This document shows, piece by piece, positions 1 to 55,639 of a stretch of DNA of 64,000 bases. The stretch is from Alphaproteobacteria bacterium (GTDB lineage: Bacteria; Pseudomonadota; Alphaproteobacteria; Micavibrionales; SZUA-601): the NCBI GenBank assembly GCA_965246875.1, contig CBDFFU010000006.1:133664-197663 (forward strand), written 5' to 3'. Position numbers and translations under genes: made by a program. Position 1 is the first letter of the stretch, and every line of letters begins with the position of its first letter. The notes beneath the pieces were generated by a model. The model searched no databases. It saw only the letters and a list, made by a program, of their open reading frames with translations, and was not told where the DNA came from.

Positions 1-537
1 GTCGGTGGAAAAGGCGAGAATGGGAATATTGGTTTTGGCCGTGACAGGTTCCACTTCGCGCACATTGGCGGCAAAGATCGGGCCCAGCATAACCGTTGCA
101 CCATCGCGCAGGGCCTGTTGTGCGGCTTGGGGCGCACTGGGGTTGGTGTCACGCGGGATCAGCGTGACATGATCGGCATGCAAATCACTCAACGCCAATT
201 GTGCGGCGTTCAACATGGCTTGACCCAATGGAGCCTGTCCACCGCTGAGTGGCACCAGCAAACCGACTTTGACCGGTATGGTTTTAGCGGAAGCGGCTGG
301 CATGTCTTTGGAGGGGGTGGTTACTAGTGGCGCGCTGTCGATCGTGCTGGCCGGCATGGCTTCAAATTTAGGCACATCGTAAATATCGGTCGCGCTGGAT
401 TGCGCGCTTGGCAGATGGGATGTGGGTCTTGTGGTCGAGGTCGCGCATCCGGCTAATAATAATGTACCCAGCAAGCCAGACAGTATCGCACGATGCAGAG
501 TTTTGGTAGAATGAGGGAGACCGGAGTGGGCAGGCAT
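1..537 (-). CDS. Penicillin-binding protein activator LpoA-like / periplasmic-binding-fold lipoprotein (N-terminal part, runs off the window)
   Basis: Manual translation: MPAHSG...LLGTLLLAGC (lipobox) ...VKVGLLVPLSGGQAPLGQAMLNAAQLAL...LIPRDT...MLGPIFA...ILAFSTD. It is divergent from rsmI-yraN-BON, the conserved yra-type context. Absent from the ORF track because its stop lies outside the window. Confidence 0.8.
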   Translation of the reverse strand, partial: MPAHSGLPHSTKTLHRAILSGLLGTLLLAGCATSTTRPTSHLPSAQSSATDIYDVPKFEAMPASTIDSAPLVTTPSKDMPAASAKTIPVKVGLLVPLSGGQAPLGQAMLNAAQLALSDLHADHVTLIPRDTNPSAPQAAQQALRDGATVMLGPIFAANVREVEPVTAKTNIPILAFSTD

Positions 538-51432: not shown

Positions 51433-52119
51433 TTATTGGCTGACCCACAGAATACGGGCGATCCAGGCCACATCCTTGCGCGGCAACGGGATATCATCGA
51501 AATGATCGTTCAGCGATTTCAGTGTGATTTGCGTCGGGCTGAGACGCGCCAGATGTTTGGCCATCACTTCGCCTTTTTTCGTGCGCACCACAACACGATC
51601 ACCACGGCGCAATTGCGTGGGGTTTGGTGAGACGATCAGGATATCGCCATCACGATACAACGGTTCCATCGAATCACCGGCGACTTCCAATGCGTAAATT
51701 GAGGGGTCATCCAGTTTGGGAAACTCGATGGTATCCCAGCCAGCGCCTGCCGGGTAACCGGCATCGTCGAAAAACCCAGCCTGGCCCGCTTGCGCGCAGC
51801 CGATAATCGGAATGTGGCGCAACGTGCGCGACCCGGTATCGCTTTGTTCACCGCGAATAAAACCAGCAATCGTGTCCAGCGACTCACCCGTAATGTCCAG
51901 AATTTTCGACAGCGATTCGGTCGATGGCCAACGGGGGCGGCCTTCCGGTGTCGCACGTTTGCTGGGGTTAAACGATGTCGGGTCAAGGCCCGCGCGGCGC
52001 GCCAATCCAGAGGCCGACAAACCGTGGCTTTCGGCCAGCAAATCAATCGCGCGCCAGATATCGTCATGATGCAAACCCTGTTGCGCAACCGTTTCATCTT
52101 TGTCTTTGCGTTTTGCCAC
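51433..52119 (-). CDS. HTH + peptidase S24 (LexA/CI-like) transcriptional repressor, RogA-like
   Basis: IWRAIDLLAESHGLSASGLARRAGLDPTSFNPSKR...RPRWPSTESLSKIL; S24 domain with VAGDSMEP (Ser) and VMAKHL (Lys). Confidence 0.88.
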   Translation of the reverse strand: MAKRKDKDETVAQQGLHHDDIWRAIDLLAESHGLSASGLARRAGLDPTSFNPSKRATPEGRPRWPSTESLSKILDITGESLDTIAGFIRGEQSDTGSRTLRHIPIIGCAQAGQAGFFDDAGYPAGAGWDTIEFPKLDDPSIYALEVAGDSMEPLYRDGDILIVSPNPTQLRRGDRVVVRTKKGEVMAKHLARLSPTQITLKSLNDHFDDIPLPRKDVAWIARILWVSQ

Positions 52120-52155
52120 GTTGTCTCTCCCATTGGCACATCGTCACAACTTAAA

Positions 52156-52238
52156 TAGGAATATAATCTTTTTTATGCTTGACGTAGGAATAAATTCATA
52201 GTAGAAAGGATTATCTTCATAATATAGGACGGCTGTCA
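52156..52238. promoter_or_regulatory. Four operator-like boxes over the divergent promoter region
   Basis: GGAA-TATA-ATCT (52158), GGAA-TAAA-TTCA (52187), GGAT-TATC-TTCA (52208), GGAC-GGCT-GTCA (52227); TTGACG -35 candidate at 52179. Confidence 0.55.
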
Positions 52239-52293
52239 GGAAATCAAGCGAAAATTTCATCACAGCCGCCTGCCAATCACGGGGGAATCGACC

Positions 52294-52734
52294 ATGCGGA
52301 TGACAAAAATCAAGGTGCCAATGGTAGCTGCACAACACGCGAACCAACTGGGTGAGCCACGCGAAGCGTGGGTGTGTTTTACCGGCGAAACGGAACTGTG
52401 GTGGCTGCATGCTCTGAAAAAGGGCTTTCGCCATTGTTTCGTCATCGCGCGCAACGCCGACCATTGGCTGGCCATAGACCCGCTCTCGCCACATTTGGAG
52501 ATTACCATCCTGCCGATTCCACAGGCGTTCGATTTGCCACGCTGGCTGGAAAAAAATGGGGTGACCCTGTCGCGGGCCGCAATTCGCCGGGACCAGCATA
52601 AATCGGCCCCGCTGTTTTTGTGTTCCTGCGTCGAGGTCATCAAACGCTTTCTCGGCATTCACAACCGCTCAATTGTCACGCCGCACCAACTGTATCAATT
52701 CCTGATCCAGCAAAACGCGTTGCTGCCCAGCTAA
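52294..52734 (+). CDS. Phage-module protein, putative permuted papain-like (His before Cys) peptidase
   Basis: GFRHCFV ... CSCVEVIKRFLG ... TPHQLY; GGGGGA RBS; first gene of the portal operon. Confidence 0.55.
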   Translation: MRMTKIKVPMVAAQHANQLGEPREAWVCFTGETELWWLHALKKGFRHCFVIARNADHWLAIDPLSPHLEITILPIPQAFDLPRWLEKNGVTLSRAAIRRDQHKSAPLFLCSCVEVIKRFLGIHNRSIVTPHQLYQFLIQQNALLPS

Positions 52735-52761
52735 TTTCACGCCACTTTTATGAGGTTCATC

Positions 52762-53064
52762 ATGGCCAAAATTGTCTCTGCCGTCCCAAAACTTTTAACT
52801 GCCACGCTTGGTGGCCTGGCCAGTAACCCGCCAAAACCGGTGGCAATGACGCCGGCTGTCGCCACGACCGTCACGCCTGCAACGGCGGAGATAAAGTCAA
52901 ACACTGATATTGCCGGACCGGATTTGTCTGATGATCTTGCCAAGGATCTGGGCGGCATTGACGCGCGCAGCAAAGGCCGCGTCGGCACGATCACCACATC
53001 GTTTCGTGGCGTGTTGAATGACACCCACAACGCGCTGCCACGCCGCACCTTGTTGGGAGAATAA
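52762..53064 (+). CDS. Small podoviral pre-portal virion protein (T7 gp7.3-like position)
   Basis: Low-complexity Ala/Thr/Pro N-terminus; C-terminal KGRVGTITTSFRGVL...RRTLLGE; directly before the portal. Confidence 0.6.
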   Translation: MAKIVSAVPKLLTATLGGLASNPPKPVAMTPAVATTVTPATAEIKSNTDIAGPDLSDDLAKDLGGIDARSKGRVGTITTSFRGVLNDTHNALPRRTLLGE

Positions 53065-53065
53065 A

Positions 53066-54535
53066 ATGGAACCATCACATGTCATGGATGCAACGCGTTT
53101 AAGTGCGTTGTATCACGATGCGAAAACGGCGCGTGAACCGTGGGACAGTCTGTGGCAGGATTGTTATGATTACGCCCTGCCGACGCGCACAACCCAAAAT
53201 GGTTTGCAACGCAGCTGGCGGCAGGCCTATCAGCATTTATACGATGCAACCGCCGCTGATGCGGTTGATCAATTAGCGGCATGTTTGTTGTCGCAACTGG
53301 TGCCGCCCTGGTCACCGTGGGTCGAAATCGCGGCGGGTCCGGCATTAACGGATGACGAAAAAACGCGTATCGCGCCAACGCTGCAAACTGTCAACCGCAT
53401 GCTGCACGATCAATTGCGGCACAGTAATTTTACCGTAGAATTGCATCAGGCGTTGCTTGATATGGTGACGATCGGCACGGCCTGCTTGTGGGTCGGACGC
53501 AATGTGCCGGGACAACTCAGCGCCTTGAATTTTCAAACCGTACCGCTTAATCAATTCTTTGTGCTGGGCCATGATTTGCAGCATTTGTTTATGCCGTTTC
53601 ATTGGACAGTCAGCAAAGTGCGGCAAACCTTTTCAGGTGTTAATGTGCCCGAGACACTGGCGGAAACAGATATGATCGAGGGTGTCTATGCCGTCATCCG
53701 CGAAGAACATGCCTGCCATCAGTGTGTCATCATGAATCCATCCGCCACACCGGAGATTATCTGGCAGGAGGTGTCAGAATTTTCACCGTTCATGCCATTC
53801 CGCTGGCAAAAAACTGCCGGGGAGATATATGGCCGCTCCCCGGTGATGAAAGCCTTGCCCGACATCAAAACGGCCAACAAAGTGGTTGAGCTGGTGTTAA
53901 AAAATGCATCAATTGCGGTCACCGGGATTTGGCAGGCGGATGATGACGGTGTGCTGAATCCCGCCAACATCAAATTGACGCCAGGCACGATTATTCCCAA
54001 AGCCGTTGGCTCGTCCGGTTTGACGCCACTGAAAATGCCTGGAAATTTTGATCTGTCGCAATTGGTGCTGAACGATTTGCGCCAGCGGATTAAACAGGCG
54101 TTACTGGCTGACCGCTTGGGTGCAACGCCGGGCAAACGCATGACGGCGACAGAAATTCTGGAGCGCAATGCCGATATGGTGCGTGCACTCAGCGCCGTTT
54201 ACAACCGGCTGCAAAGCGAATTGCTGGTGCCACTGGTCACACAGATTATATCGGTATTGAAACAGCGCGGCGATTGTCCGGACATCATGCTGGACGGTCA
54301 ATATTTCACGCTGAATTTTCTCTCGCCTTTGGGCCGCGCGCAACAACAGGATGATGTGCAAGCGACATTAAACTGGCTGATGACGGCACAGCAATTTGGT
54401 GCCGAGGCGTTATCCAACATCAATGTGCCACACATGGTGTCGTGGCTTGGCCAGCAACTGGGTGTGCCGGCGCATCTGCTGACGCCGCCTGTACCCGTTT
54501 CACTACCAGCGGAGATCATCCATGAAACAGCCTGA
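53066..54535 (+). CDS. Podovirus-type portal / head-tail connector protein
   Basis: HLYDATA..AVDQLA, ELHQALLDMVTIGTAC, RWQKTAGEIYGRSPVMKALPDIKTAN, MTATEILER, LQSELLVPL (T7 gp8-like connector motifs). Confidence 0.88.
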   Translation: MEPSHVMDATRLSALYHDAKTAREPWDSLWQDCYDYALPTRTTQNGLQRSWRQAYQHLYDATAADAVDQLAACLLSQLVPPWSPWVEIAAGPALTDDEKTRIAPTLQTVNRMLHDQLRHSNFTVELHQALLDMVTIGTACLWVGRNVPGQLSALNFQTVPLNQFFVLGHDLQHLFMPFHWTVSKVRQTFSGVNVPETLAETDMIEGVYAVIREEHACHQCVIMNPSATPEIIWQEVSEFSPFMPFRWQKTAGEIYGRSPVMKALPDIKTANKVVELVLKNASIAVTGIWQADDDGVLNPANIKLTPGTIIPKAVGSSGLTPLKMPGNFDLSQLVLNDLRQRIKQALLADRLGATPGKRMTATEILERNADMVRALSAVYNRLQSELLVPLVTQIISVLKQRGDCPDIMLDGQYFTLNFLSPLGRAQQQDDVQATLNWLMTAQQFGAEALSNINVPHMVSWLGQQLGVPAHLLTPPVPVSLPAEIIHETA

Positions 54536-54818
54536 GTCACACCAAATGGAACAACGATCAGCGTTGCGGAAATTCCTGTTCGGCAATCTGCCGCCGGACG
54601 ATATCAGTAAAGCCTATGCACGCTGTTTCAACGGCCGTGACGGGCAGACAGTGCTGGAGCATCTGCACCAGATCACGCTGTTCCGCATCACTGATCCGAC
54701 CATGGACCCGACGGCGTTACGCCAGCTGGAAGGCCAACGCCAATTGGTGTTGTTCATGTGCCAGCAAATCGCCAAGGCCAGCCATGGTGTGCCCACACCA
54801 GCAAAAGGACAGGCATGA
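54522..54818 (+). CDS. Bbp19-like phage protein
   Basis: YARCFNGRDGQTVLEHL...LRQLEGQRQLVLFM, typical of the small gene after BPP-1-like portals. Confidence 0.7.
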   Translation: MKQPESHQMEQRSALRKFLFGNLPPDDISKAYARCFNGRDGQTVLEHLHQITLFRITDPTMDPTALRQLEGQRQLVLFMCQQIAKASHGVPTPAKGQA

Positions 54819-54854
54819 CACATTTTTAATTCACAACCAACGGGGGATACGACC

Positions 54855-54959
54855 ATGACAGACAACCAGATACGCCGCACGGAAACGATGCTGCGCACCT
54901 TTCTTTCCCACATCTTCTTTCACAATGGAGACCTGATATGCAAGAAGACAATCTCTTGA
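54855..54959 (+). CDS. Possible 34-aa small ORF
   Basis: GGGGGA RBS; MTDNQIRRTETMLRTFLSHIFFHNGDLICKKTIS*; overlaps the scaffold start. Confidence 0.3.
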   Translation: MTDNQIRRTETMLRTFLSHIFFHNGDLICKKTIS

Positions 54960-55639
54960 TTGCCACACACGATGCAGCAGACGTTGCACCGAAAAACGCG
55001 TCTGCTAAATTGACTGTTCCTGAAAAATTCTGGGACAAGGAGAAACAGGAAGTCCGCATCGACGCCTTGTTAAAATCCTATCTTGAGCTGGAGAAGAAAT
55101 TCTCGGCGAATGAAAAGGCAAAACCGGCCGTGCCAGACACGCCGCGTGACTATAGCGTCAAACTGGAACATGATTTGTTTACAACCGACGACGAAATCAA
55201 CGATCGTTTGCATCAAGCCGGCTTTACCGATACGCAAGTGCAATTGGTCTATGATCTGGCTACCGAAAAAATGGTGCCGCTGATCATTGAGTTGGCGCGC
55301 GATTTTGAAGCCGACCGTGAGATCGAAAAACTGGTCAAGACATTCGGCGGCATGGATAAATGGCGCGCAGTGTCCAAACAGCTTTTGGCCTATGGCCAGA
55401 AACATCTGCCAGCCGATGTCGTCAACGGTTTGTCTGGCTCCTATGAAGGCGTCATGGCGTTATACCGCATGATGCAAAGCGGTGCTAATCCAAACATGCA
55501 GGATAATGTGACAATTGATGGTGCCGTCGACGAAAAAGGCCTGAAAAAGATGATGCAGGACCCGAAATACTGGCGCGACCGCGATGCCGAGATGGTGAAG
55601 AAGGTAACCGCCGGGTTCAAGCAAATTTTTAATAATTAG
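54938..55639 (+). CDS. Putative podoviral capsid scaffolding protein
   Basis: PEKFWD...DALLKSYLELEKK; acidic helical core; C-terminal MMQDPKYWRDRD...VKKV...F. Confidence 0.7.
   Translation: MQEDNLLIATHDAADVAPKNASAKLTVPEKFWDKEKQEVRIDALLKSYLELEKKFSANEKAKPAVPDTPRDYSVKLEHDLFTTDDEINDRLHQAGFTDTQVQLVYDLATEKMVPLIIELARDFEADREIEKLVKTFGGMDKWRAVSKQLLAYGQKHLPADVVNGLSGSYEGVMALYRMMQSGANPNMQDNVTIDGAVDEKGLKKMMQDPKYWRDRDAEMVKKVTAGFKQIFNN

Follow-up and report, generated by a model that had tools for sequence, protein, structure and literature searches.

Tandem palindromes between a RogA-like repressor gene and a T7-type head module, putative operators of dispersed particle genes in an alphaproteobacterium

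Introduction

In Caulobacter crescentus, the repressor RogA controls a siphovirus-type gene transfer agent indirectly, through the activator operon gafYZ (Gozzi et al. 2022; Tran & Le 2024). The purified protein binds DNA of the gafYZ core promoter, where GGAA-N4-TTCC occurs twice, and ChIP-seq yielded two RogA peaks only, none of them at its own gene (PMC9632790; PMC11150451). Homologues of RogA occur widely in Rhodospirillales and Rhizobiales (PMC9632790). What is known of RogA so far comes from one organism, those two peaks and that indirect mode of control.

The locus described here resembles RogA/gafYZ in that a GGAA-N4-TTCC inverted repeat is present in more than one copy on a core promoter, next to the gene of a repressor with HTH and S24-like domains that would silence phage-derived particle genes. 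The two proteins are likened on the basis of the published description of CCNA_00080. The differences are as marked. The sites lie in the divergent region of the repressor gene itself, unlike the RogA peaks, and they sit directly on structural-gene promoters, those of a portal module and of a capsid-tail-terminase operon, rather than on an activator operon; no gafYZ-like gene adjoins the boxes. The particle genes are of the T7/podovirus type, and the repressor keeps the catalytic Ser/Lys pair, whereas RogA lacks the catalytic residues.

Two other systems share features with this locus. As at OR1-OR3 of phage lambda, which serve CI and Cro, three putative dimer sites lie side by side here, flanked by the gene of a CI-type, self-cleaving repressor and by lytic or structural genes. 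A distance of two helical turns separates two of the sites and would suit cooperative binding, and autoregulation is likely. Like alphaproteobacterial LexA, the repressor is a predicted self-cleaving S24 protein with probable negative autoregulation and candidate operators in the core promoters of a dispersed regulon. The LexA SOS box GAAC-N7-GAAC is a direct repeat, however, whereas the motif found here is a palindrome, and no such SOS box occurs between positions 52120 and 52293 even if one mismatch is allowed.

New with respect to RogA are the conservation of a RogA-kind putative operator beside the repressor gene across Alphaproteobacteria and a promoter cassette of rigid layout (TTGACA-N3-box, in which the -10 begins with the final TA of the box) that is placed directly on T7-like, host-inherited particle genes. 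The cassette defines a regulon open to testing and can serve as a query for dispersed particle genes in other genomes.

Results and Discussion

Three conserved palindromes separate the repressor gene from the head module

The window, that is, the whole 64-kb stretch of DNA that was analyzed, contains a repressor gene and, divergently oriented, a module of phage head genes (Table 1). An earlier note on this DNA had described four operator-like AGGA-N6-TC(A/T) boxes between them. All four strings were found at the exact starts it gave, 52158, 52187, 52208 and 52227. Boxes 1 to 3 are 16-bp imperfect palindromes of the form TAGGAAT-N2-ATTCCTA, with the core GGAA-N4-TTCC. Since this consensus contains GGAA-N4-TTCC, the statement in the note that the RogA operator is close to that sequence was correct, and it agrees with the published site (PMC9632790). 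Box 2, quoted there as GGAATAAATTCA, is indeed one base off, with 7 of the 8 core bases matching, and boxes 1 and 3 match at 6 of 8 bases each. A repeat finder also related the boxes to one another, boxes 2 and 3 forming an 18-nt direct repeat (78% identity, 21 bp apart) and boxes 1 and 2 a 13-nt direct repeat (85% identity, 29 bp apart).

Table 1. Coordinates of the features discussed. Positions without a prefix are those of the window; C3 and C6 refer to other parts of the genome.
Feature	Position	Strand	Description
Repressor gene	51433..52119	-	N-terminal DNA-binding domain and Peptidase_S24; 228 aa, GTG at 52119
Box 1	52156..52171	.	TAGGAATATAATCTTT; 21.7 bits with the relatives-only matrix
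-35 of the rightward head-module promoter	52179..52184	+	TTGACG; CTTGAC invariant in the same-family alignment
Box 2	52185..52200	.	TAGGAATAAATTCATA; 23.7 bits; occupies the 17-nt promoter spacer
-10 of the rightward promoter	52202..52207	+	TAGAAA; predicted, 17 nt from the -35
Box 3	52206..52221	.	AAGGATTATCTTCATA; 14.3 bits; 21 bp from box 2
Candidate repressor promoter	52210..52239	-	CTGACA-18-GATAAT; consensus scan, 10 of 12 matches
Box 4 of the earlier note	52226..52238	+	AGGACGGCTGTCA; <3 bits; not conserved
Head module	52294..55639	+	146-aa and 104-aa proteins, T7-type portal, Bbp19-like protein, T7-type scaffold
Capsid-tail-terminase operon	C3:897690-906146	-	Major capsid (PF19821), tail tubular A and B, fiber/spike, large terminase
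Boxes of the capsid operon	C3:906259, 906282		23 bp apart
Genes with N-terminal PG_binding_1	C6:98995-100110, C6:199247-200338, C6:14924-15304		Three paralogues behind boxes
LexA gene	C6:646586-647245		Canonical GAAC-N7-GAAC box in its promoter
Composite elements, parS starts	C3:476655, 540987, 841789, 980334, 1094965, 1215616
Composite elements, parS starts	C6:91085, 310125, 430395, 571883, 719135

The boxes were scored with a 16-column matrix built from 35 sites, all of them taken from intergenic regions of relatives. The seed of the matrix was a consensus picked by eye. In the 2.18-Mb genome (approximately 2.2 million positions), 41 positions reached at least 14 bits and two reached at least 23.7 bits. 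None of 20,000 shuffles of the intergenic region produced two sites of at least 14.3 bits.

Repressor orthologues were found in 32 of 41 related genomes. The usual order in these relatives is repressor gene, divergent gene for a small 110-175-aa protein, 146-aa gene, 104-aa gene and portal gene, and the synteny of repressor and module is maintained in the order as well as in Azospirillum and Magnetospirillum. An alignment of five same-family regions revealed four invariant blocks, TAGGAAT (box 1), CTTGAC, TAGGAAT..TCATA (box 2) and AGGA.TA..TCA (box 3), with flanks that could not be aligned; box 2 was invariant save for two central bases. The 29-bp spacing of boxes 1 and 2 recurs in three relatives (L002-L004) and the 21-bp spacing of boxes 2 and 3 in one (L003). 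De novo word counts, which do not depend on the seed, gave TAGGA, ATAGGA and TAGGAAT as the commonest 5-, 6- and 7-mers in the intergenic regions of relatives, which are rich in TAGGAAT..TC(C/A)TA words. TAGGA was present in 15 of 15 regions, compared with 4.0 in shuffles (maximum, 9).

The conservation in orthologous regions that the note had called for was thus found for boxes 1 to 3 and for the TTGAC of the -35 element, but not for box 4. Given its low score and absent conservation, the array consists of three sites rather than four and, judged by these two measures, box 4 is not an operator. The TGTCAG within it is CTGACA on the opposite strand, the -35 of the candidate leftward promoter. 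A hairpin with 15-nt arms at 52230-52268 was also considered and rejected, as it folded no better than shuffles (z = -1.28), was not followed by a T-run and had no match in Rfam.

We estimate at about 0.8 the probability that boxes 1 to 3 are tandem operators of the adjacent HTH-S24 RogA-like (CI/LexA-type) repressor. Repressor dimers would bind the three boxes, each 16-bp palindrome being of a kind that suits a dimer.

The motif accompanies the repressor gene across Alphaproteobacteria

In a scan that took one genome from each species, 596 repressor relatives were retrieved across Alphaproteobacteria, the best 79 of which were used. They came from Azospirillum, Magnetospirillum, Brucella, Mesorhizobium, Xanthobacter, Hyphomonas and others. 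Among these best 79 of 596 loci, the density of matrix hits was 3.95 per kb within 250 bp upstream of the repressor gene and 0.106 per kb in the remainder of those loci, a 37-fold enrichment. Upstream hits were present at 28 of the 38 loci that have an adjacent phage module and at 24 of the 41 that do not, showing that the motif travels with the repressor gene and not with the module. The commonest position of the box in this set was approximately 40 to 55 nt before the repressor start codon. Box 1, located 36 nt upstream of the GTG and 7 nt ahead of the rightward -35, corresponds to it. In Azospirillum and Magnetospirillum the entire cassette is recognizable, with a box, 6 nt, TTGACG, a box in the spacer and a -10.

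Compared with its orthologues, the repressor has 15 additional codons at the N terminus (window positions 52074-52119). A GGGAGAG ribosome-binding-like site precedes the GTG at 52119; the ATG at which the orthologues start is CAG in this gene, and an in-frame TTG comes after it at 52074.

The boxes might be genuine conserved sites that are read by another factor, such as a nucleoid-associated, partition-linked or unknown regulator, while the repressor binds elsewhere. In line with this, the strongest copies of the motif are found off promoters. They occur in 11 dispersed composite elements of 66 to 80 bp, all outside the window, in which a perfect parS consensus, TGTTTCACGTGAAACA, is followed by TTTGSCCYTTT, an IHF-consensus sequence, WATCAANNNNTTR, and a near-perfect box, TAGGAATAYATTCCTA. 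The IHF consensus is exact in 8 of the 11 elements and its offset is constant. The genome's best-scoring boxes are those of the composite elements, away from promoters (8 of the 11 elements lie between convergent genes), and the motif therefore has at least one use besides promoter occlusion. Nevertheless, we regard another reader of the boxes at the repressor gene as unlikely. The 37-fold enrichment is upstream of that gene and includes the 24 of 41 loci that have no module, no other gene accompanies the motif so consistently, and the motif core equals the site on the DNA bound by purified RogA (PMC9632790).

The composite element is genus specific, with 11 copies here, one in a congener and none in 39 other relatives; near-perfect palindromes number 14 in this genome and 0 to 5 elsewhere. 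The three centromere parS sites at the parAB locus (C3:341279-341716) have no box, and the intergenic region between repressor gene and head module has no IHF consensus. An insertion sequence was considered as the source of the boxes and ruled out. The single copy of an IS1595-family element (C3:541036-542866, transposase and a 228-aa ORF) has inserted into the pre-existing box of a composite element, with GGAATACATTCC directly duplicated on both sides. The elements may titrate the repressor, or they may have a function of their own. That ParB, IHF and the repressor assemble on them, and could in this way tie the induction of particle genes to chromosome organization, is a doubtful proposition drawn from the arrangement of the sites. 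If true, the elements could set the threshold of induction by acting as a titration sink, or could mark the points at which packaging of host DNA into the particles begins.

The boxes overlap the predicted promoter of the head module

As the earlier note had proposed, box 2 lies in the spacer of a TTGACG-17-TAGAAA promoter, the 17 bases of which are box 2 plus one base. At the equivalent place relatives have TAGAAA, TAAGAA, TATAAC or TATAAA as -10, and promoters of the form TTGAC[AG]-16..18-TAnAAn were found at this place in L003, L006 and L014-L018. TTGAC was present in 12 of 15 intergenic regions of relatives, compared with 4.2 in shuffles. The rightward promoter, predicted to be of the sigma-70 type, is well supported. 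It would drive the genes for the 146-aa, 104-aa, portal, Bbp19-like and scaffold proteins; in Pfam the module matched PF12236 (E = 2.3e-105), PF25181 and PF05396.

Repressor bound at boxes 2 and 3, which are separated by two helical turns, would block RNA polymerase at this promoter: with the spacer occupied by box 2 and the expected start site by box 3, the polymerase would be excluded. The operators would in this way silence the head module and, probably, the repressor's own promoter as well. For the latter the argument is one of position. Box 1 lies between the promoter and the repressor start codon, so the repressor transcript would start at the boxes or pass through them, which suggests negative autoregulation. 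Box 1 would then throttle transcription of the repressor gene, together with boxes 2 and 3 if the leftward candidate is real.

All three boxes are present beside the well-supported rightward promoter, whereas the leftward promoter is only a candidate. CTGACA-18-GATAAT, the -10 of which is covered by box 3, could be the promoter of the repressor gene, but a consensus scan of 14 orthologous regions found no consistent position for a leftward promoter. The candidate has a counterpart at the equivalent place in L002 (TTGATA-16-TATAAT) and, by eye, in the L003 and L004 sequences, and none further afield. If this candidate is real, the two promoters overlap and face each other, their start sites being approximately 11 bp apart.

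The note had gone on to propose a multioperator, lambda-like switch that controls both the module and the repressor itself. In such a bistable arrangement, a second regulator encoded by the module would compete with the repressor for four operators. Three adjacent putative operators between repressor gene and phage module, and a CI-like repressor with its cleavage residues intact, would fit this idea, as would the conserved small protein that most relatives encode directly after the operators. We nevertheless consider it very unlikely. Box 4 fails on both score and conservation. No Cro-like gene was seen, and neither the 146-aa nor the 104-aa protein matched a family, DNA-binding families included (a missing family match does not rule out DNA binding).

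The small protein is itself absent from this genome. It is 110 to 175 aa long and defined by the motif F..AEEAWFWF..GAR..RPCEP.DI..L.R..L. In most relatives, which range from Micavibrio-like genomes to Azospirillum, its gene comes first after the operators, and in L002-L019 and L031-L098 it lies between the repressor gene and the 146-aa gene (e.g., L064:1961-2350, minus strand). In this genome and one other, the gene is missing beside the repressor, and tblastn found no match anywhere in the assembly at E < 0.05. CAGGAAATCAAGCGAAAA, the DNA that follows box 4, aligns with the ribosome-site and start region of the gene that relatives have and that was lost here. The protein had no match among Pfam, NCBIfam and PDB sequences. 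Its AlphaFold model is confident (pLDDT, 90.6) and has five helices, and a fold search with it returned nothing significant, the best E value being 2 and the phage 21 Q antiterminator aligning at a TM score of 0.32.

The lambda-like switch thus exceeds the evidence, as no Cro-like partner is evident, and the inconsistent placement of the repressor's own promoter also speaks against it. The comparison with lambda fails on further points. The lambda promoters are back to back, whereas those here appear to be face to face if the leftward candidate is right; positive autoregulation and bistability are features of lambda for which there is no evidence here; and the gene set is chromosomal and vertically inherited, not a prophage.

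The same cassette precedes capsid genes and other dispersed genes

The note had suggested a genome-wide scan for the motif as a way to find the missing capsid, terminase and tail loci. The matrix scan located them in a single operon behind two boxes (Table 1). It also found five more TTGAC-plus-box promoters beside those of the head module and the capsid operon. A TTGACA promoter with a box lies upstream of each of three paralogous genes, the products of which share an N-terminal PG_binding_1 domain. A Mu-F-like domain is present in two of the products and a phage lysozyme domain in one. Judged from these domains, the trio may be particle proteins that are internal to the virion or degrade the wall. 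Two boxes precede an operon that codes for 112-aa and 506-aa proteins, and one box precedes a DUF763 gene. In the head-module, capsid, 126-aa, 112-aa-operon and DUF763 promoters, TTGA[CA] begins 6 to 9 nt ahead of the box, and in the promoters of the 363-aa and 371-aa PG-binding/Mu-F genes the box overlies the -10. A weaker box, TAGGATTATAGTCCTG (17.4 bits), follows TTGCAA ahead of a Y-family polymerase gene (IMS family, 420 aa; C6:657447-657520), and the same promoter has a LexA-type GAAC-N7-GAAC repeat. With the same promoter-box cassette at the capsid operon and at other genes, one protein would silence the entire dispersed particle kit directly.

The capsid gene of relatives lies 4 to 5 kb from the repressor gene in one contiguous cluster, which in this genome is split after the scaffold gene. 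Among 17 relatives, 14 have a capsid box of at least 17.6 bits, 210 to 300 nt upstream of an anchor motif near the N terminus of the capsid protein. In 13 of these 14, TTGAC precedes the box by 9 to 10 nt (exactly 9 in 12), and a TATAAT-like -10 begins with the final TA of the box. The presence of the cassette at the capsid genes of relatives indicates that this internal promoter-operator cassette is old. The split of the cluster would then have left both halves under the same control.

A chance origin of the boxes in AT-rich promoter DNA, with no role as operators, is scarcely credible: the motif was defined post hoc from the region itself, and its count in the 64-kb window (11 matches compared with 6.9 +/- 2.4 expected) is not significant alone, but 4 of the 11 matches lie on one strand inside 82 bp, the frequency in 454 other AT-rich intergenic regions of the genome is 0.055 per 175 bp, no other region (0 of 926 intergenic regions) has at least three copies, a matrix from other genomes selects boxes 1 to 3, the boxes are conserved and their flanks are not, and the same cassette occurs at capsid promoters across the order. 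The background frequency that the note had named as a possible refutation is therefore well exceeded.

Features of the repressor point to probable self-cleavage upon DNA damage

The repressor matched Pfam PF00717 with an E value of 1.2e-23, and a profile of its orthologues matched the S24 cleavage domains of lambda CI and LexA. Its N-terminal domain was found in no other protein of the genome. The protein retains the GDSM serine, the AKHL lysine and the AQAG stretch. Since the Ser/Lys pair and the Ala-Gly site are kept, release of the operators would most likely occur by RecA-stimulated self-cleavage. The predicted inducing signal is DNA damage, acting through this cleavage.

We considered whether the repressor is LexA itself and ruled this out, as it scored 29.6 bits against the lexA equivalog model (cut-off, 110.95) and the genome has a LexA of its own (Table 1). 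A UmuD-like protein is encoded as well. The catalytic serine is kept in the closer orthologues and in the repressor of this genome; in the distant orthologues of L016, L017, L018 and L022 it has been lost, GDSM being replaced by GNNF, DSDV or TNKA, a loss also reported for RogA of Caulobacter.

Both kinds of site, LexA type and box, are found on the module promoter of some distant relatives, and these LexA-type GAAC repeats point to DNA damage as the signal. In L014, L017, L011, L013, L007 and L064, the small first gene has a TTGAC promoter that is followed by runs of a GAACA repeat, some of these runs with the LexA spacing GAAC-N7-GAAC. Judged from these repeats, LexA and the RogA-like repressor may act on one promoter in the lineages that have such runs.
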